Assembly: GCA_964359735.1 (NCBI GenBank)
Contig: CAYHTZ010000006.1
Coordinates: forward strand, 3,898 to 67,897
Direction of reading: 5' to 3'
Length of the DNA: 64,000 bases
Source of the DNA: an uncultured Candidatus Saccharibacteria bacterium
GTDB taxonomy: Bacteria; Patescibacteriota; Andersenbacteria; UBA10190
Shown here: positions 3,458-25,266 of the stretch, piece by piece
Numbering within the stretch: position 1 is the stretch's first letter
How the letters are laid out: the number at the start of each line of letters is the position of its first letter
Notes under the pieces: model-generated
Told to the model about the DNA's origin: nothing
What the model saw: only the letters and a program-made list of their open reading frames with translations
Databases searched by the model: none
Translations under genes and position numbers: made by a program

Positions 3458-4420
3458 TTACACCGCGAACTTAAAGATCACCACATCTCCGTCCTGAACC
3501 ACGTATTCTTTGCCTTCATCGCGCAGCAGCCCGCGAGCTCTAGCGGCCGCGTAGGAGCCGGCAGAAAGGAGGTCCTGCCAGGCGATTGTCTCGGCGCGGA
3601 TAAATCCTCGCTCCATGTCAGAGTGGACTTTACCAGCGGCTTCAGGGGCCTTCGTGCCTTGCCGTACTGTCCAAGCGCGGGTTTCTTTTGGTCCGGTGGT
3701 TAGGAAGGTAATGAGGTTGAGAAGAGAATAACTGGCTTGAATAAGACGGTTGAGGCCAGTGTCTGCCAGGCCGTATTCCTGTAAGAAGGTAGCGCGCTCT
3801 TCGTCAGAGAGTTCAACCAACTCCTGCTCGATTTTTATGGAAATAGGGAGTACCCCACTTCGCTCGGAAGCTTCGCGGGGCGCAGCGGGCGAGATCTTAC
3901 CCTTGAACTCAGCAATAATGGCATCGGCGTTTTGCATTTGAGTTTCCGAAAGATTTGCTATGTACAACGTGGGTTTGGTTGAAAGTTTTGGCGTGTCTTC
4001 TTTGGTGTTTAAGTCAGCTAGCTCGAGCTCGGTGCGGATCGTTTCCACATCGTCGATCGGGTTTACCCGATTCATAACGTGGGTAATACTGGGGTCTTCA
4101 AAGAACCGGACTACATGGGCAATGGCGTCTACTTCCCGGATGTGGGAGAGAAATTGATTGCCCAGCCCCTCGCCTTGGTGCGCGTTCTTCACCAGGCCGG
4201 CGATGTCTACAAACTCAACGCTGGTGGGCACGATTTTTTCAGATTTGCTCATGGCCGCCAGTTTTTCTAGGCGCTCGTCGGGCACAGGCACCACGCCGAC
4301 ATTCGGGTCAATGGTGGTAAACGGGACATTCCGCGCCGCCACCGCTTGCTTAGTAAGCGCGTTAAATAAGGTAGACTTGCCCACATTGGGGAGACCAACA
4401 ATACCGATTCTTAAGCTCAT
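3458..4420 (-). CDS. ychF: ribosome-binding ATPase YchF (Obg-family GTPase)
   Basis: G1 GIVGLPNVGKSTLFNALT, G-domain and C-terminal TGS domain (DMERGFIRAE...DGDVVIFKF). Confidence 0.95.
   Translation of the reverse strand: MSLRIGIVGLPNVGKSTLFNALTKQAVAARNVPFTTIDPNVGVVPVPDERLEKLAAMSKSEKIVPTSVEFVDIAGLVKNAHQGEGLGNQFLSHIREVDAIAHVVRFFEDPSITHVMNRVNPIDDVETIRTELELADLNTKEDTPKLSTKPTLYIANLSETQMQNADAIIAEFKGKISPAAPREASERSGVLPISIKIEQELVELSDEERATFLQEYGLADTGLNRLIQASYSLLNLITFLTTGPKETRAWTVRQGTKAPEAAGKVHSDMERGFIRAETIAWQDLLSAGSYAAARARGLLRDEGKEYVVQDGDVVIFKFAV
3853..3881. repeat. copy B of the CCCCACTTCGC/GCTTCGCGGGGC repeat, embedded in-frame in ychF
   Basis: Encodes the extra peptide SPAAPREASER relative to canonical YchF between the G-domain and the coiled coil. 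Confidence 0.5.
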
Positions 4421-4571
4421 ATCCCAACCTTTCGGTGGTTAGCGGTATGTGACCCCATATTTCACCTTTCTTTTGCCCATATATGACTACTTTATCAATT
4501 AGTTCCCTTATTACAGCTGTTCTGTTGCGAAAATCAAGTTTGAGAAAGATACTTTGTTGTACTAATCCGAC

Positions 4572-5519
4572 CTAAATCATGCTTTGTCCTTTGTGTGGTT
4601 TGTATTCAGAGAAGGGTGTTAAAGCAATGAAGTTAGAGTTGTTTTTTCGATAACAAAATTTGTTATCTATAACTTCAACTTCTTGGACTAACTCCAAGTC
4701 TTTTGGGTCGCCAGTTCTTGATATATAGGTCTTGTTGCTTCCCATGAAAGTACCTGGAACACTGTTTGGTAAAGTGCCAACCATTAACGTGATTACGCCA
4801 CCCCCTACAGTGGGCAGTTCTTTGGTGGCTGCCGTTGAAAAAATGAAAGCAGCTAGTACACCCGTTTCTCGTATGACGTTGCCGCACCCTTTCTCGAACT
4901 CTAATTGACCAATGAGGGTTGAGGGTACGTCTTCCTTCGAGAATCCTTTTGGACCGTAAGCCAAGTATTCACCCCAATCAGTGTCTTCGATTTTTAATAG
5001 GTTTTCTTTGGGGGATATTTGTACCCCGAATAAACGGCTGTGTGGCACTGGCAGTTCTGGGTATGGGTTGGGATTGTTCCCTTTAGCTTTAAGTCCCTCA
5101 TAAATTACAGGCTTCAGTTCCATTTGGGTGCCTGTAGTGTCTTGAAAATGCTTAACTTTCTTGATTAACTGTTTTCCAGAAATTATTTTCCTTTTGTCTG
5201 GATCAATGCCAGCAAATAACAAGCAAGACTTTGCGTAGTGATGTGATTCAAGATATTTATTGATAGTTTGTTTAATCCACCCCTCTATCCCTGCTCGGAA
5301 CTGATCAATAGGGAGTTTTGGAATTGGATCCGCTTTTAACTTTTTAAAAAGATATTGAGCAAGTGCGAGGTCACCAGCGGCCGCAACAAGAAGATTATTA
5401 TGTATGTTTTCTATCTTGAGGATGTCATCCTTGCTATCACCTGATACGGTTTTAGTTAATCGAGTATCGGCTGCTAGATAAATTCGGTCTGATAAATTAG
5501 CTCCGAATATCAATGACAT
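4572..5519 (-). CDS. hypothetical protein (orphan ORF in a low-GC island)
   Basis: AT-rich K/N/I-rich ORF; start set at ATG (MSLIFGANLSD) preceded by GAGGAGG about 9 nt upstream; no recognisable domain. Confidence 0.6.
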   Translation of the reverse strand: MSLIFGANLSDRIYLAADTRLTKTVSGDSKDDILKIENIHNNLLVAAAGDLALAQYLFKKLKADPIPKLPIDQFRAGIEGWIKQTINKYLESHHYAKSCLLFAGIDPDKRKIISGKQLIKKVKHFQDTTGTQMELKPVIYEGLKAKGNNPNPYPELPVPHSRLFGVQISPKENLLKIEDTDWGEYLAYGPKGFSKEDVPSTLIGQLEFEKGCGNVIRETGVLAAFIFSTAATKELPTVGGGVITLMVGTLPNSVPGTFMGSNKTYISRTGDPKDLELVQEVEVIDNKFCYRKNNSNFIALTPFSEYKPHKGQSMI

Positions 5520-21954: not shown

Positions 21955-22315
21955 TTTCAGTGCTAGCAGGGTAACCTGCTCTTAGGTAATTGTCGTGGAT
22001 GAGCTGCTTATTGTAGTAGCTGTCGACTGAATAGTTTGCACCCAGTTTGAGGTCGGTATGCGGTCCTCTGAATGAATTTCGTCCACTTTGTGCCCAGAAA
22101 GGACCTGGGCAGTAGATCCACAAGCGCATACTAATAATAGAAATCCGCCCATTATAGGGTGTGGTGTAGATATTTTTCTGTGGCAACGTGGGCAGTAGTG
22201 TGACATATTGTTTGAAGCTTAACGGTTATCAATAGTTTCTCAAGAGAATTTGGTCGACACATTATACAGCTTTGATTTTTGTTCGCCGGCGGGATAGCGT
22301 GAATGTATAAGCGCT

Positions 22316-22663
22316 ATGGGCGACGTAGATCACCTTATTAAGAAAATTGTTGCATTCCGGGATGCTAGAGATTGGAAGCAATTTCATAATCCAAAAGACA
22401 TGGCCCTTTCTTTGGTCTTGGAGGCTGTGGAGGTACTGGAACATTTTCAGTGGAAAGACAAGAAAGAGATGGTGGAGCACGTTGAAGGACACAAAGCAGA
22501 GATTGGTGAGGAACTCGCGGACGTTCTCTATTGGATTCTGCTTATGAGCCATGATTTTGGTATTGATATTTTAGATGCCTCTAAGAAAAAGTTAGCTAAG
22601 ACTGAGAAAAAATATCCCGTTGCGAAGGCGAGGGGTAAGCATCTCAAGTACGACAAATTATGA
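22316..22663 (+). CDS. MazG-like all-alpha nucleotide pyrophosphohydrolase
   Basis: EAVEVLEHFQWKDK and EELADVLYWILLMS motifs (E..E..E / ELADV) typical of the MazG/house-cleaning NTP-PPase fold; low-GC. Confidence 0.8.
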   Translation: MGDVDHLIKKIVAFRDARDWKQFHNPKDMALSLVLEAVEVLEHFQWKDKKEMVEHVEGHKAEIGEELADVLYWILLMSHDFGIDILDASKKKLAKTEKKYPVAKARGKHLKYDKL

Positions 22664-23769
22664 GTCCAGACCTTACCTCGGCTCTCGACACAAAGCAATT
22701 CTTCAGATTCACGGGGCCACCTGAGCACTGGTTGACAGCTGTTAAGTATATGACTTGGGGGCTCGAGGAGAGTCATAGAGAGAGGTGGAAGAAGATTCAA
22801 ACGGGAGATGTTTTCTTTATTCACAGTACCGGTCCGCAAGCGTCCGCATTTCCAGACGCGGCTTCGGGCATCATAGGTATTGGAGTTGTTGGATTTCATT
22901 TCTCAGTAAAAACTAACAGCCTATGGCACTACGAAATAAAAAACAACAATAACCAATGGCCATTGCTCATACCTCTTACCGAGATTTATTTGTTCGGTGA
23001 GTTGCCCAGTCCCGCGGCGTGGGAGTCGCCAACTCCTGGTAATGATGCACAAACGGCAAAGCTCATTAGCCAGCTGGTTGCTGGTAGAATGCCAATATCT
23101 GAAATTCGAGGATTTCCTCAGATGGGGAGTTTCTCTTCTGTCTCACGGGAAGTTGCCGAACAAATCCTTTTTCAAAAGAGGCCCCTCTACCTTTACTCGG
23201 GTCATTCAACCCGTGGCACGATTGAAGAGAAGCCTTCTGATTTCTTCGAAGTGAAAAATGCGACAGAAACTTTACGGCATGCCGCCTCGCTCCGTTTTCT
23301 CGATGAGGTAAACAGAAGAATTATTACAAAGCCATACTCCTTGGTTGCGCGCGACAATGAAATTCTAGCTCGCGCAGAATCAGTGCATCACTCGATAGTA
23401 CAACAGTTGATCGATATCTTTAGGGCTAAGGGTTATCAGACTCTTTCGAATGAATTTGTGGATTTGTTTGCACATGATGAAAAGCGCTCGTTTCTTTTTG
23501 AAGTTAAGAGTACGGAGAATAGGAATTTCAGATCTCAAGCTCGGAAGGGAATAGTGCAATTATACGAGTACGATTATTTCGATGTAAGGAAGTTTAAGCG
23601 AGAAAGAGGGATAGACTTTCGAGATCAATACAGGATCTTTGTACCATCACGTGAGCCTGCTGATAAGGGTTATGTCGAGTTTATCAATTCCCTAGACCTA
23701 GGTGTTGCTACGGTCAAGGATGGTGCGGTCAAGCCGGTGGGTCAAGATTTCGGTTTTTCAAGGCTCTGA
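22660..23769 (+). CDS. PUA-like (EVE/ASCH-type) domain fused to PD-(D/E)xK nuclease; candidate modification-dependent endonuclease
   Basis: N-terminal RERWKKIQTGDVFFIHSTG...SGIIGIGVV resembles the PUA-like EVE core; C-terminal VDLFAHDEKRSFLFEVKST...Q..YEY resembles a PD-(D/E)xK motif; ATGA overlap with the mazG-like gene. Confidence 0.65.
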   Translation: MSPDLTSALDTKQFFRFTGPPEHWLTAVKYMTWGLEESHRERWKKIQTGDVFFIHSTGPQASAFPDAASGIIGIGVVGFHFSVKTNSLWHYEIKNNNNQWPLLIPLTEIYLFGELPSPAAWESPTPGNDAQTAKLISQLVAGRMPISEIRGFPQMGSFSSVSREVAEQILFQKRPLYLYSGHSTRGTIEEKPSDFFEVKNATETLRHAASLRFLDEVNRRIITKPYSLVARDNEILARAESVHHSIVQQLIDIFRAKGYQTLSNEFVDLFAHDEKRSFLFEVKSTENRNFRSQARKGIVQLYEYDYFDVRKFKRERGIDFRDQYRIFVPSREPADKGYVEFINSLDLGVATVKDGAVKPVGQDFGFSRL

Positions 23770-23837
23770 TTTGAAATGAATTTATGATCCGCAAGATAAA
23801 AGGTGGATGGAGGGTGGTGGCTGAGAGCGGGAGGAAT

Positions 23838-23927
23838 ATGGGGACGTACAAAACTAAGCGGGAGGCGAAGGAGCGGCTTAGGCAAATTGAGTTTTTCAAG
23901 CATCTCAAGAAGAGGAAGAAAAGATGA
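23838..23927 (+). CDS. 29-aa basic peptide ORF (MGTYKTKREAKERLRQIEFFKHLKKRKKR), ATGA-overlapping the next ORF
   Basis: Not in the ORF track (<60 aa); read directly from sequence; speculative. Confidence 0.25.
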   Translation: MGTYKTKREAKERLRQIEFFKHLKKRKKR

Positions 23928-24205
23928 CCACAGATGTTCAGATTGTGAAAACGGAGGATCTGCCGGCGGGCTGGCGATTTGCGGTGCGGCTGAAGGATGA
24001 GAGCGGAGAACAGGTGCATACGGTGGAGCTGGACAGTGATTATTGGCAGAAATTTGCCGGGAGGTACGGGACGCCAGAGAAATTAGTGGTGGAATCGTTT
24101 CGGTTTCTTTTGAACCGCGAGCCGCGGGAATCTATTTTGCTTTCATTTAACCTCAGGAAAATTTCCCAGTATTTTCCTGAGTATGAGGAAGCCATGAAGG
24201 GGTAA
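23924..24205 (+). CDS. hypothetical 93-aa protein
   Basis: ORF only. Confidence 0.4.
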   Translation: MTTDVQIVKTEDLPAGWRFAVRLKDESGEQVHTVELDSDYWQKFAGRYGTPEKLVVESFRFLLNREPRESILLSFNLRKISQYFPEYEEAMKG

Positions 24206-24257
24206 GTCCCGTTTCCCGACCAGGTCCATGATATGTTAAAACTTAACGTATAAACCC

Positions 24258-24785
24258 ATGAACAAACCTCCGCAAAATAACTATGCGTTTGTAGACGGTC
24301 AAAATCTCTACATGGGCACAGCAAAACGAGAAGTTGATCCATGGAAGGTAGATTTGGCAAAATTCCGTGTGTATCTCGCGCGTAAGTATAGCGTGTCAAA
24401 AGCATTTTATTTTCTTGGATTTTTAGACGAATCACGACAGTCGCTGTACGAAAGTATACAAGCGGCTGGATTTATTATTGCATTTCGCGAACATACATCC
24501 TTGATGCTTGGCAAAAAGAAAGGCAATGTTGACTCAGACATCGTTTTTAACGTTATGCAGAAGATGTATTACAAAGAACCATTTGATAAAATTGTATTGG
24601 TTTCCGGGGACGGCGATTACAAGCAGCTGGTTGATTTTCTCGTAGCCGAATCAAAGCTTGAAAAAATACTGTTTCCAGATCGGAAACGGGCATCATCACT
24701 CTATAAAAAGCTTGGAGCAGCTCATTTTGCGGCGCTTGATGAGCCTGACACGCGTCGGAAAATAGAAATGAAAAAGGCTCCTTAG
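24258..24785 (+). CDS. NYN-domain (LabA-like, PIN-related) ribonuclease
   Basis: FVDGQNLY...VLVSGDGDY acidic motifs of the NYN fold. Confidence 0.8.
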   Translation: MNKPPQNNYAFVDGQNLYMGTAKREVDPWKVDLAKFRVYLARKYSVSKAFYFLGFLDESRQSLYESIQAAGFIIAFREHTSLMLGKKKGNVDSDIVFNVMQKMYYKEPFDKIVLVSGDGDYKQLVDFLVAESKLEKILFPDRKRASSLYKKLGAAHFAALDEPDTRRKIEMKKAP

Positions 24786-24828
24786 GTAGTTAGCCGTTCG
24801 GAACCTTTTTCGTCGTAATACATAAAGT

Positions 24829-25266
24829 ATGCCCACAACCACGTATAATGTCAAGATGACGCCCGAGGAGTTTGAACAACTGGTAGATGAGGGGATTGCG
24901 GCTATTCCGGAGCGATTTTTGAAAAAGCTCTCTAATGTGGCGATTGTGGTGGAGGAGGCGCCCTCGCGTGAACAAGTCCGCCAGCTGGCGGAGAAGATGC
25001 GCTTACATCACGGGCATACATTGTTAGGTTTGTATGAAGGGATCCCGCAAACGAGGCGGCAGCACTACGGCGTGGGAGGGGCAGTGCCGGATAGGATTAC
25101 GATTTTCCGCCGGCCGATTGAGTGGGCGAGCGGCGGGGACCCTGGGCGCGTGCGAGACATTGTCCGCGATACGGTGTGGCACGAGATTGCCCACCACTTT
25201 GGTATGGGCGAAGCGCAGGTGCGCAGGCATGAGGCCCAGCGCCGGAGACAAACGGCTAGCACCTAG
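24829..25266 (+). CDS. small zincin-like metallopeptidase (Zincin_1/DUF1025-type)
   Basis: HExxH as WHEIAHHFG; about 145 aa. Confidence 0.6.
   Translation: MPTTTYNVKMTPEEFEQLVDEGIAAIPERFLKKLSNVAIVVEEAPSREQVRQLAEKMRLHHGHTLLGLYEGIPQTRRQHYGVGGAVPDRITIFRRPIEWASGGDPGRVRDIVRDTVWHEIAHHFGMGEAQVRRHEAQRRRQTAST

Follow-up and report, generated by a model that had tools for sequence, protein, structure and literature searches.

What do a small nucleotide pyrophosphohydrolase and a nuclease carrying a putative reader of modified bases do together when they are encoded as a single overlapping gene pair? Such a pair lies in the window (the whole 64,000-nucleotide stretch of DNA analysed here), and a preliminary description of it had proposed a defence module that cleaves hypermodified phage DNA and hydrolyses the matching modified dNTP pool. 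We find that the pair is probably an undescribed two-part anti-virus restriction system, and we give a probability of roughly 50% to the more specific reading that a modification-dependent restriction enzyme (gene 2) is coupled to a modified-dCTP hydrolase (gene 1) in a horizontally mobile, two-gene module. What the analysis shows is the folds of the two proteins, their intact active sites, their obligate linkage, the mobility of the module and the occurrence of the reader domain in restriction-type settings. The locus is laid out as follows:

22316..22663, + strand: gene 1, a 115-aa all-alpha NTP pyrophosphatase assigned to the DCTPP1/dCTPase (MazG-like, PF12643) subfamily
22660..23769, + strand: gene 2, a 369-aa PUA-like reader plus PD-(D/E)xK nuclease, predicted to be a Type IV restriction endonuclease
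22660..22663, + strand: ATGA start/stop overlap, with the ATG of gene 2 over the TGA of gene 1; junction AAATTATGAGTCC
22693..23214, + strand: PUA-like (EVE/YTH-like) region of gene 2 (residues ~12-185), a beta-barrel core (~12-112) followed by a helical/strand extension
23215..23379, + strand: linker region of gene 2 (residues 186-240), delimited from the pLDDT profile and the secondary structure of the model, with a low-confidence loop at 230-239
23380..23766, + strand: PD-(D/E)xK domain of gene 2 (residues 241-369), an alpha-beta-beta-beta-alpha-beta core
23461-23463, 23500-23502 and 23506-23508, + strand: catalytic residues D268, E281 and K283 of gene 2
21955..22315, no strand: 361-bp gap 5' of gene 1, presumed to contain the operon promoter

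Both open reading frames lie on the + strand where the preliminary description had placed them, and the junction sequence agrees with the ATGA overlap it had reported; the 4 nt shared by the stop of gene 1 and the start of gene 2 form an arrangement that is typical of, and may reflect, translational coupling. The low-GC island that had been claimed for the pair holds moderately: its GC content is 44.8% against 51.6% for the window, at the 4.8th percentile among 1454-nt windows (mean 51.5%, sd 3.4%), and it sits within a low-GC stretch of about 21955-24800 (44.7% GC). The upstream gap contains no convincing sigma-70-like site (the promoter scan gave none on the + strand), a scan of the operon and its surroundings for promoters and terminators gave no excess over shuffles, and the window contains no tRNA gene, so that neither an integration site nor transcription signals can be defined.

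The MazG-like identity proposed for gene 1 is borne out by Pfam, where both the MazG-like (PF12643; E=3.9e-15, 56.3 bits, cutoff 27) and MazG (PF03819; 26.2 bits, cutoff 22) models score above cutoff; nothing among the PADLOC-DB v2.0 models matches gene 1 at E<=1. Sequence searches of the PDB recover AF1178 (4qgp; 1.1e-19) and mouse DCTPP1 (2.6e-14), and the profile of the gene 1 family matches the same two proteins over the full length (6e-28 and 5e-25, respectively). The AF2 model (pLDDT 87.5) is helical throughout, an all-alpha dCTPase-type fold, for which Foldseek finds AF1178 (4qgp) at TM 0.8, mouse dCTPase with 5-Me-dCMP at TM 0.71 (the best match that is functionally characterised) and also human DCTPP1, with canonical MazGs scoring E>0.2. 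The motifs quoted in the preliminary description, E36/E39/E42 and E66-L-A-D69, are real and invariant among relatives; indeed, all five metal ligands (E36, E39, E42, E66 and D69) are invariant together with W20 and W46 (33 and 29 sequences), and this set aligns with E63, E66, E95, D98, W47 and W73 of DCTPP1. The aromatic pocket comprises W20, W46 and W73, the last aligned with Y102 of DCTPP1. W47 and W73 of DCTPP1 are reported to contact the 5-methyl group (PMC13510388), and gene 1 resembles DCTPP1/RS21-C6 and AF1178 (6sqw, 7mu5, 2oig, 4qgp) in full-length sequence, fold, metal ligands and both of these tryptophans, its size being that of the DCTPP1 catalytic core. It differs from DCTPP1 in being prokaryotic, mobile and the upstream gene of nuclease operons, and in that I11 takes the place of His38. 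By sequence and modelled fold, we assign gene 1 to the DCTPP1/dCTPase subfamily and not to canonical MazG, HisE or dUTPase. This homology points to a 5-substituted cytosine, not necessarily a hypermodified base, and the earlier wording "hypermodified phage DNA" is narrower than the data support.

For gene 2, profile and sequence searches were sub-threshold or unusable, and the fold is therefore taken from structure prediction. The AlphaFold model is confident and comprises an N-terminal PUA-like domain, as had been proposed, and a C-terminal PD-(D/E)xK nuclease. Structure comparison of the reader recovers the PUA-like pseudo-barrel fold, in which W24, W33, W43, D50, H55, W89 and W121 never vary and W100 almost never does. 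The more precise EVE- or ASCH-type label was not recovered by HMM search: the N-terminal domain matches no Pfam model at E<=1, EVE (PF01878), YTH, ASCH and SRA included, NCBIfam PRK00809 reaches E=0.0034 (far under its cutoff) and one distant relative (P0160) matches EVE at E=0.0087. Given that gene 2 has no significant match to Pfam EVE/YTH/ASCH or to PADLOC, the ligand of the reader is not readable from homology, and the domain is best treated as a new family inside the PUA-like superfamily.

The YTH domains, readers of m6A in RNA, are among the folds closest to the gene 2 reader, and a YTH-like reader could see a modified RNA base such as m6A, with the PD-(D/E)xK domain serving as an RNase against transcripts of phage or host. 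We consider such an RNA-directed activity highly improbable, as archaeal EVE-like proteins head the structural matches, which also include PUA domains that bind DNA (VcaM4I, THYN1 with 5mC DNA and McrB N-domains), and the partner family is a deoxynucleotide (dCTP) pyrophosphatase. The wider distribution of the reader argues in the same direction: among 40 distant relatives it recurs with McrB AAA_5 (20/40), HNH (8/40) and NOV_C (3/40), and the McrB GTPases that carry it often place it in tandem with the DNA-binding MrcB_N or DpnI_C domains. The McrB GTPases and HNH nucleases in which it recurs are architectures typical of Type IV restriction.

The nuclease claim for gene 2 rests on the alpha-beta-beta-beta-alpha-beta core of the modelled C-terminal domain and on D268, E281 and K283, which are invariant in 41 sequences and also kept in nuclease-only relatives (the D nearly invariant there). 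These residues align with VDL...EVK of Hjc, the catalytic positions of that enzyme, and the helix after the catalytic motif bears conserved Q293, Q300, E303 and Y304. Scores against known models are low, as is common in this highly divergent superfamily (PDDEXK_9, E=0.05, 14 bits, cutoff 25.5); the only PADLOC-DB v2.0 match is a non-significant one to REase_MTase_IIG (E=0.0066, 12.5 bits), and in sequence searches of the PDB neither gene 2 by itself nor its profile yielded anything of use beyond the weak Hjc alignment. The nuclease domain is reused elsewhere with EVE, MTaX1 and AlwI-type domains, and no solved structure was found that unites a PUA-like reader with a PD-(D/E)xK domain as in gene 2.

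Gene 2 thus has the Type IV arrangement of a modified-base reader fused to a nuclease, with a reader common to other Type IV enzymes. Known enzymes of this kind with PUA-superfamily readers include the PUA-HNH proteins TspA15I and VcaM4I, the PUA-DUF3427-PD-(D/E)xK protein YenY4I and MspJI-type fusions of an SRA-like domain to PD-(D/E)xK (Lutz et al. 2019, PMC6765204). In that survey, YenY4I alone combines a PUA reader with PD-(D/E)xK, and does so with an additional DUF3427 (PMC6765204), whereas the gene 2 reader is fused directly to the nuclease, forms a separate family that stays below the cutoffs of the Pfam EVE/SRA/ASCH models and is always preceded by a dCTPase gene. In contrast to McrBC systems with PUA/YTH/EVE-type readers, gene 2 has neither a GTPase nor McrC; as a single-chain reader-nuclease, it should be NTP-independent.

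The pairing itself recurs well beyond the window. In all 34 of the gene 2-type loci that were fetched (31/31 when non-redundant), gene 2 is preceded by a MazG-like gene in the same orientation, the two genes overlapping or nearly abutting in most of them, and the flanks are unrelated between loci. The loci come from CPR bacteria, a Nanoarchaeia MAG (DPANN), Omnitrophica, Elusimicrobia, Aminicenantes and Firestonebacteria. The correlation between gene 2 and its linked MazG is moderate (Mantel r=0.37), and 13 of 32 gene 2-linked MazGs are nearest to helicase-linked MazGs; MazG subtypes have been swapped between lineages while the adjacency to gene 2 persists. Vertical co-inheritance as the sole cause of linkage is rejected in view of this repeated MazG replacement (r=0.37 only), and complete linkage with order and overlap conserved across phyla despite it excludes chance adjacency. 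The two genes might otherwise be unrelated neighbours, or a selfish, toxin-antitoxin-like addiction cassette, MazG serving only to neutralise a nuclease that is toxic. The module is mobile, toxin-antitoxin genes are common among its neighbours and E. coli mazG is part of the mazEF operon; the fully conserved MazG active site nevertheless argues for an enzymatic role over a purely binding antidote and the same MazG precedes several unrelated nucleases, which together with the linkage leaves unrelated neighbours or an addiction cassette only a very small probability.

The module is rare and patchily distributed: a pattern-limited scan across genomes that stand for 185,579 species gave 27 loci, and relatives fall into 386 protein clusters. 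Frameshifted copies occur at two loci (L032 and L034), and relatives are found on prophage-like contigs; a phage-encoded origin was rejected because the IMG/VR viral contigs contain no gene 2 relatives. These features bear on whether the pair belongs to immunity at all. Salvage-dependent, ultra-small cells would import foreign DNA as a source of nucleotides, and in a house-cleaning pair gene 2 would degrade or nick modified DNA, or repair misincorporated modified bases, while the dCTPase removes modified dCTP before incorporation. About half of the gene 2 carriers are labelled candidate-phyla bacteria, with one DPANN archaeon besides, and pool sanitation is the established role of DCTPP1. Identity among the top 120 homologues is 65-85% across lineages of the candidate phyla, a degree of conservation unusual in defence genes, several loci are embedded in housekeeping genes (e.g. 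ThrRS/MiaB/MiaA and DnaG/RpoD), and related MazGs are followed by Vsr (2 loci) and UPRT-like genes. Nevertheless, the rarity of the pair, its low GC, the frameshifted copies, the swapping of MazGs, the prophage-like contigs and the restriction-type proteins in which the reader otherwise occurs fit an accessory, mobile defence function better than core metabolism, and we regard house-cleaning or salvage as distinctly unlikely.

The neighbourhoods of gene 2 include R-M methylases, SoFic, PDC-S01, Type I HsdM and toxin-antitoxin pairs. No third gene recurs 3' of gene 2 apart from an occasional SRA-HNH, which adjoins five gene 2 loci and two MazG loci; RadC is an occasional third gene that lies upstream of gene 2 and flanks the MazG gene. 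DNA methyltransferase motifs are absent from window ORFs of at least 150 aa and from most gene 2 loci. C5 cytosine methyltransferases lie within ~2.5 kb of gene 2 at three loci (L010, L012 and L016), where they are probably parts of neighbouring R-M systems; they would be awkward for a 5mC-dependent gene 2 unless the sequence contexts differ.

Viewed from the MazG side, the association is broader. In 67 independently sampled loci, the gene that follows MazG is a nuclease-helicase in 37, a member of another reader-nuclease family in 7, gene 2 in 2 and something else in 21, and HNH and McrB-type reader fusions are also found around the same MazG family; with the Vsr and SRA-HNH genes, they give its surroundings a theme of cytosine methylation and restriction. 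The gene 1-type dCTPase is not dedicated to gene 2 and lies upstream of several interchangeable nucleases; with this qualification the preliminary interpretation is supported, its functional part (cleavage of modified DNA, hydrolysis of the matching modified dNTP and phage protection) as a prediction. The commonest nuclease partner joins PD-(D/E)xK to an SLFN-g3/DUF2075 helicase, and its best PADLOC matches are the nuclease-helicases Nhi, AbiO and candidate PDC-S41. These pairs share gene order and tight spacing with MazG and gene 2, to which the nuclease-helicases themselves are unrelated, being helicase-based and having no recognisable modified-base reader; the role of the dCTPase therefore cannot rest solely on such a reader. 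A second MazG-linked "reader" family (alignment A6) was rejected as a homologue of the gene 2 reader (hhalign 20% probability, 37 columns) and, having no Pfam domain either, is not called PUA-like.

That MazG also precedes nuclease-helicases fits a role in the nucleotide pool better than one on modified DNA, and would suit a nucleotide-sensing form of abortive infection, in which a modified mononucleotide set free during infection is captured by the PUA-like domain and the nuclease then attacks any DNA, while the dCTPase sets the threshold by destroying the triphosphate precursor or depletes dCTP as a second effector. A precedent exists in the PUA-Cal-HAD preprint, where a PUA-like domain binds m6-dAMP and activates an effector that depletes dNTPs, where PUA fusions to HNH and McrB are described and where rare variants carry a MazG-like enzyme in place of the calcineurin-CE effector (10.64898/2026.01.15.699771). 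These rare variants combine a PUA-like sensor with an enzyme that targets nucleotide triphosphates, as here; they keep the HAD phosphatase, however, and in our loci the fusion partner of the PUA domain is a nuclease instead of the phosphoesterase. HAD and calcineurin-CE are absent from the neighbours in the window and from the 25 commonest families among 147 neighbours (30 loci), and membership of PUA-Cal-HAD is rejected because these genes are missing. That McrB proteins carry the gene 2 reader in tandem with MrcB_N and DpnI_C likewise points to DNA-bound bases, and we judge nucleotide sensing unlikely.

We hypothesize instead that the pair acts on modified cytosine both in DNA and in the nucleotide pool; which DNA is cut, which modification is read, which dNTPs are hydrolysed, the logic of self-protection and the anti-phage activity all belong to this hypothesis. 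The PUA-like domain of gene 2 would flip out and recognise a modified DNA base, most likely a 5-substituted cytosine, after which the PD-(D/E)xK domain would cut the DNA. Gene 1, co-translated with gene 2 from one mRNA, would yield the monophosphate from the matching modified dCTP (e.g. 5-methyl- or 5-hydroxymethyl-dCTP) by hydrolysis; phages with modified DNA would be starved of their precursor, and salvaged modified nucleotides would be kept out of host DNA, where targets for the nuclease would otherwise arise. Such protection of host DNA may be most important where organisms of the candidate phyla or DPANN depend on salvage. Type IV enzymes lack a methyltransferase that would mark self; if our reading is right, the pair shows that restriction can be firmly wired to enzymatic editing of the nucleotide pool, and a dedicated modified-dCTP hydrolase would provide a new means of host protection as well as starvation of hmC and other modified-DNA phages.

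The data also point to a much larger hidden family, in which thousands of DCTPP1-like genes are mostly followed by a nuclease or nuclease-helicase, and which connects prokaryotic conflict systems with DCTPP1, the enzyme that sanitises the nucleotide pool in humans. We offer only tentatively, as a doubtful generalisation, that mobile defence cassettes with a DCTPP1-type dCTPase as their conserved upstream core, two genes long or three where RadC joins, make up a large class that has gone unrecognised. The pool enzyme would be obligatorily coupled to interchangeable effectors (PUA-PD-(D/E)xK, reader-HNH/McrB and Nhi-like nuclease-helicases; Vsr at times takes the same downstream slot), so that modified cytosine is attacked in both pool and polymer, and the dCTPase would double as an "immunity" factor that bars salvaged modified nucleotides from host DNA. 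If true, the cassettes would represent a methyltransferase-free form of self/non-self discrimination for restriction. The literature searched contains no description of a dCTPase/MazG and PUA-nuclease pairing, in keeping with the earlier remark that the pairing is not a recognised named system, and no paper on the family of DCTPP1-like genes with nucleases; a 2026 machine-learning study places MazG among predicted, unvalidated defence domains. Few candidate defence modules are, like this one, concentrated in candidate-phyla and DPANN organisms, about whose immunity little is known, and compact, NTP-independent reader-nucleases could become tools for mapping modified bases.

A parallel arrangement is seen in SauUSI, homologues of which adjoin homologues of the MutT (Nudix) pyrophosphohydrolase (Bell et al. 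2020, PMC7641849, Fig. 9 legend), an association on which that paper comments in the figure legend only. The components are non-homologous to those described here (Nudix vs. all-alpha MazG, and PLD/helicase vs. PUA-PD-(D/E)xK); a modification-dependent restriction enzyme again stands beside a small NTP pyrophosphohydrolase.

The two open reading frames lie exactly where the preliminary description had placed them, both on the forward strand, and the stop–start overlap that it reported is present, with the ATG of gene 2 overlapping the TGA of gene 1 at the junction AAATTATGAGTCC:

22316..22663, forward strand, gene 1, ORF of 115 aa
22660..23769, forward strand, gene 2, ORF of 369 aa

The two genes are co-transcribed and probably translationally coupled. 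They also occupy a low-GC island, as had been proposed: the pair has a GC content of 44.8% versus 51.6% for the window, placing it at the 4.8th percentile of same-size windows, within a low-GC stretch at ~21955-24800. No tRNA genes were found within the window, and a scan around the pair detected no promoter or terminator signals exceeding shuffled controls.

The gene pair is obligately linked and horizontally mobile. A pattern-limited scan, with each of 185,579 species represented by one genome, recovered 27 gene 2 loci, which by title belong to candidate-phyla bacteria (13), a Nanoarchaeia archaeon (1), Aminicenantes (2), Omnitrophica, Elusimicrobia, Firestonebacteria and 'uncultured Gammaproteobacteria' (6), with two unlabelled. 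Contigs of Kaiserbacteria and Doudnabacteria and further metagenomic ones, with very different flanks, all have a MazG-like gene directly 5' of gene 2, and by tblastn a MazG gene is upstream on the same strand in 34/34 gene 2 loci (31/31 when non-redundant). Neighbours of the module include R-M methylases, SoFic, PDC-S01, toxin-antitoxin pairs, Type I HsdM and NYN genes, as well as housekeeping genes; no gene 2 relatives were found on viral contigs (IMG/VR). Gene 2 is frameshifted in two of the comparison loci, L032 (3995-5103) and L034 (4001-4323), which could reflect pseudogenisation or assembly error. In both, the MazG gene is intact, and in L034 a Type I HsdM-like methylase follows the interrupted gene 2.

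By family, gene 1 is a DCTPP1-type (dCTPase-type) MazG, with the corresponding activity predicted from sequence and model. The MazG-like assignment was borne out by both Pfam MazG-like (PF12643, E=3.9e-15) and Pfam MazG, and among PDB sequences gene 1 matches AF1178, a pyrophosphatase of Archaeoglobus (1.1e-19), and dCTP pyrophosphatase 1 of mouse and human (2.6e-14). With a family profile, the alignment to DCTPP1 extends through the entire protein and takes in the C-terminal tail (5e-25). AlphaFold predicts an all-alpha protein (pLDDT 87.5), for which the closest Foldseek match is AF1178 (TM about 0.8), followed by mouse dCTPase with 5-Me-dCMP, human DCTPP1 and RS21-C6 with 5-methyl-dCTP, with canonical MazG, HisE and dUTPase structures matching far more weakly. 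Residues E36, E39, E42, E66, D69, W20 and W46 are invariant among gene 1 relatives and align by profile to DCTPP1 E63, E66, E69, E95, D98, W47 and W73, respectively. A 2026 review (PMC13510388) assigns substrate recognition in DCTPP1 to Glu63, His38 and Tyr102, and a possible contact with the 5-methyl group to Trp47 and Trp73. In gene 1, Tyr102 corresponds to W73, and His38 is not conserved. The conserved MazG active site and the 34/34 linkage both argue against unrelated neighbours or an addiction cassette, which we regard as very improbable.

Gene 2 gave only sub-threshold matches to profile libraries (Pfam, NCBIfam, PADLOC), and its nearest homologue, from a Candidatus Kaiserbacteria MAG, shares 85% identity, which makes a Patescibacteria (CPR) genome the most likely source of the window. 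Its AlphaFold model, built from 41 homologues, is confident (pLDDT 90, pTM 0.86) and supports the proposed fusion of a PUA-like reader to a PD-(D/E)xK nuclease, which we adopt as its modelled architecture. Fold matches include YTH domains (9-10.6), the PUA-HNH restriction enzyme VcaM4I (9.0), ASCH (8.8), THYN1 bound to 5mC DNA (7.6) and McrB N-terminal domains (7.1-7.3), and Foldseek agrees (MJECL36, 3e-7; PH1033, 1e-6). Among 583 representatives from an exhaustive profile search, about 25 are full length and many cover residues about 10-160 alone or about 230-310 alone. Among 40 proteins that share only the reader domain with gene 2, McrB-type AAA_5 GTPases account for 20, HNH nucleases for 8 and NOV_C proteins for 3; 9 of the 40 contain MrcB_N (one with an added DpnI_C). 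Without the reader, the nuclease domain turns up alongside EVE, MTaX1 and AlwI-type domains. Judged from these domain matches, the contexts of both domains are hallmark Type IV (modification-dependent) restriction architectures. The sole PUA to PD-(D/E)xK fusion found in 2019 was YenY4I, which differs in carrying an additional DUF3427 domain (Lutz et al., PMC6765204).

The MazG family extends well beyond gene 2 (at least 7,958 versus 386 clusters). We sampled 83 MazG loci independently (L035-L117), 67 of them with room downstream:

Genes downstream of MazG
37/67, PD-(D/E)xK + SLFN-g3/DUF2075 helicase (PADLOC PDC-S41, Nhi/AbiO-like); e.g., L038:636-2843, L091:4001-6798, L036:3501-6515
7/67, second reader family with HNH, REase-like domain or McrB; L040:1817-2809, L050:401-1372, L069:4339-5457, L082:577-1617, L110:4345-5754
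2/67, gene 2
21/67, another gene or no close gene, including Vsr very-short-patch repair endonuclease directly 3' of MazG (2; L058:395-913, L066:430-966; PF03852, E=4e-29), HNH_4, RadC, and putative RsmH-like and UPRT-like genes identified by eye from sequence

The helicase partner (600-815 aa) usually starts within about 10 nt of MazG and has an N-terminal PD-(D/E)xK-like region and sometimes a C-terminal Peptidase_S24; together with MazG it appears to form a large two-gene family not described before. Members of the second reader family, which also occurs in L118-L125 (about 3844-4830), share an N-terminal domain of ~170 aa (motif WG..W..M.PGD.VL.Y) that is fused to HNH, a REase-like domain or a McrB-type P-loop. 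This domain looks PUA-like by eye, but it has no match in Pfam and hhalign against the gene 2 reader gives only 20% probability. The helicase or the second reader family also follows more distant MazGs carried by prophage-like contigs in IMG/VR. Vsr is tied to 5-methylcytosine deamination, and its position after MazG is a further hint at a role of the MazG family in handling 5-methyl-cytosine nucleotides.

MazG and gene 2 protein distances are only moderately correlated (r=0.37, Mantel p about 0.002), and 13 of 32 gene 2-linked MazGs, the window copy among them, are closest to a helicase-linked MazG. The MazG gene has thus been exchanged repeatedly with adjacency kept, a pattern that speaks for selection on the pairing as such. 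The pair is unlikely to serve salvage or house-cleaning instead of immunity, because it is rare, patchily distributed and low in GC, has pseudogene copies and shows module shuffling.

Further genes recur around the cassette:

L021:3201-3935, L025:2380-3057, L031:3273-4001, L036:3885-4547, RadC (PF04002 + UPF0758_N)
L022, L023, L024, L030, RadC 5' of MazG
L006:6107-6565, L013:5154-5849, L021:2128-2829, L011:3697-3924, L012:2165-2392, L071:518-1228, SRA-like + HNH protein, roughly 235 aa, some copies truncated
L010:5167-6471 (reverse strand), L012:4714-5937, L016:4591-6171 (reverse strand), C5 cytosine DNA methyltransferases near gene 2

The RadC-type JAB gene (PF04002), present in 8/31 gene 2 loci, is an optional third cassette gene, located between MazG and the nuclease (three loci) or just 5' of MazG (four). 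For RadC-type JAB domains, nucleic acids or nucleotides are the predicted substrates (PMC3239186). RadC occurs with both partner types, gene 2 and helicase. In five of the gene 2 loci and at two MazG loci the SRA-HNH gene adjoins the module, and it probably encodes a second modification-dependent nuclease; its assignment comes from a weak SAD_SRA match and an HNH match at E about 1e-6. The C5 methyltransferases, that of L016 with a LexA-like N-terminal extension, are probably parts of neighbouring R-M systems, and they bear on which modification gene 2 can tolerate.

The module thus combines a DCTPP1-type dNTP pyrophosphatase with a reader-nuclease of Type IV design, both predicted to be intact enzymes. 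We hypothesize that gene 2 cleaves DNA bearing a modified base, with a 5-substituted cytosine as the most plausible candidate in view of the dCTPase partner and of the association with Vsr and SRA-HNH, and that gene 1 would hydrolyse the matching modified dCTP. Such hydrolysis could starve phages replicating with modified dCTP, and could keep salvaged modified nucleotides out of host DNA, which would otherwise become a target; the latter role would explain both the fixed partner of a methyltransferase-less restriction enzyme and the frequency of the module among ultra-small organisms that depend on salvage. There is a non-homologous precedent in the MutT homologue beside SauUSI homologues (Bell et al. 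2020, figure legend, PMC7641849). We give this model as a whole a probability of about 0.5. It is weakened by the commonest MazG partner (the nuclease-helicase) having no evident reader, by the C5-methyltransferases near gene 2 in three loci and by YTH-type RNA readers being among the best gene 2 fold matches; RNA targeting by gene 2 itself appears highly doubtful. By analogy with the PUA-Cal-HAD anti-phage module, which has rare MazG variants (preprint 10.64898/2026.01.15.699771), the PUA domain might instead sense a free modified nucleotide and trigger the nuclease, but HAD or calcineurin genes are absent from the module neighbours in the window and from the commonest families at the compared loci, and we consider this reading improbable.

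Reader-nuclease Type IV enzymes are already known as a kind; what is new is the obligate dCTPase partner, the gene 2 reader family and the wider MazG + nuclease cassette family. The preliminary description did not recognise the pairing as a named system; in agreement, no PADLOC model covers gene 1 or gene 2, and in the literature searched neither a PUA-nuclease nor a DUF2075 helicase was described as coupled to a MazG/dCTPase. MazG is among the predicted, unvalidated defence domains of the DefensePredictor paper (PMC13092281). The dual 'pool and polymer' logic and self-protection role would, if demonstrated, raise the significance of the module.

Other ORFs lie around the module in the window:

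21982-22206, reverse strand, 74-aa ORF with zinc-ribbon-like CPRC...CACG spacing, without Pfam match
23784-23927 and 23924-24205, forward strand, two small overlapping ORFs immediately 3' of gene 2
24258-24785, forward strand, NYN (LabA-like) domain protein (PF01936, E=3e-15; weak PADLOC HEC-09 match)
24829-25266, forward strand, Zincin_1 metallopeptidase-like gene (PF06262, E=3e-23)

The reverse-strand ORF, inside the 361-bp gap 5' of the MazG gene, may or may not be a genuine gene. One of the overlapping ORFs (47 aa) has a weak DUF2188 match (E=0.0095) and the other (93 aa) is without match; they are not conserved as cassette members. In Doudnabacteria (L003), too, DUF2188 genes are found close to the module. 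The NYN gene is 0.5 kb downstream of the module, and NYN genes lie near the module in 4/31 loci and near one further MazG locus (L037). At the Zincin_1 gene, a family also found near the module in L003, GC is back up to 58.7%.
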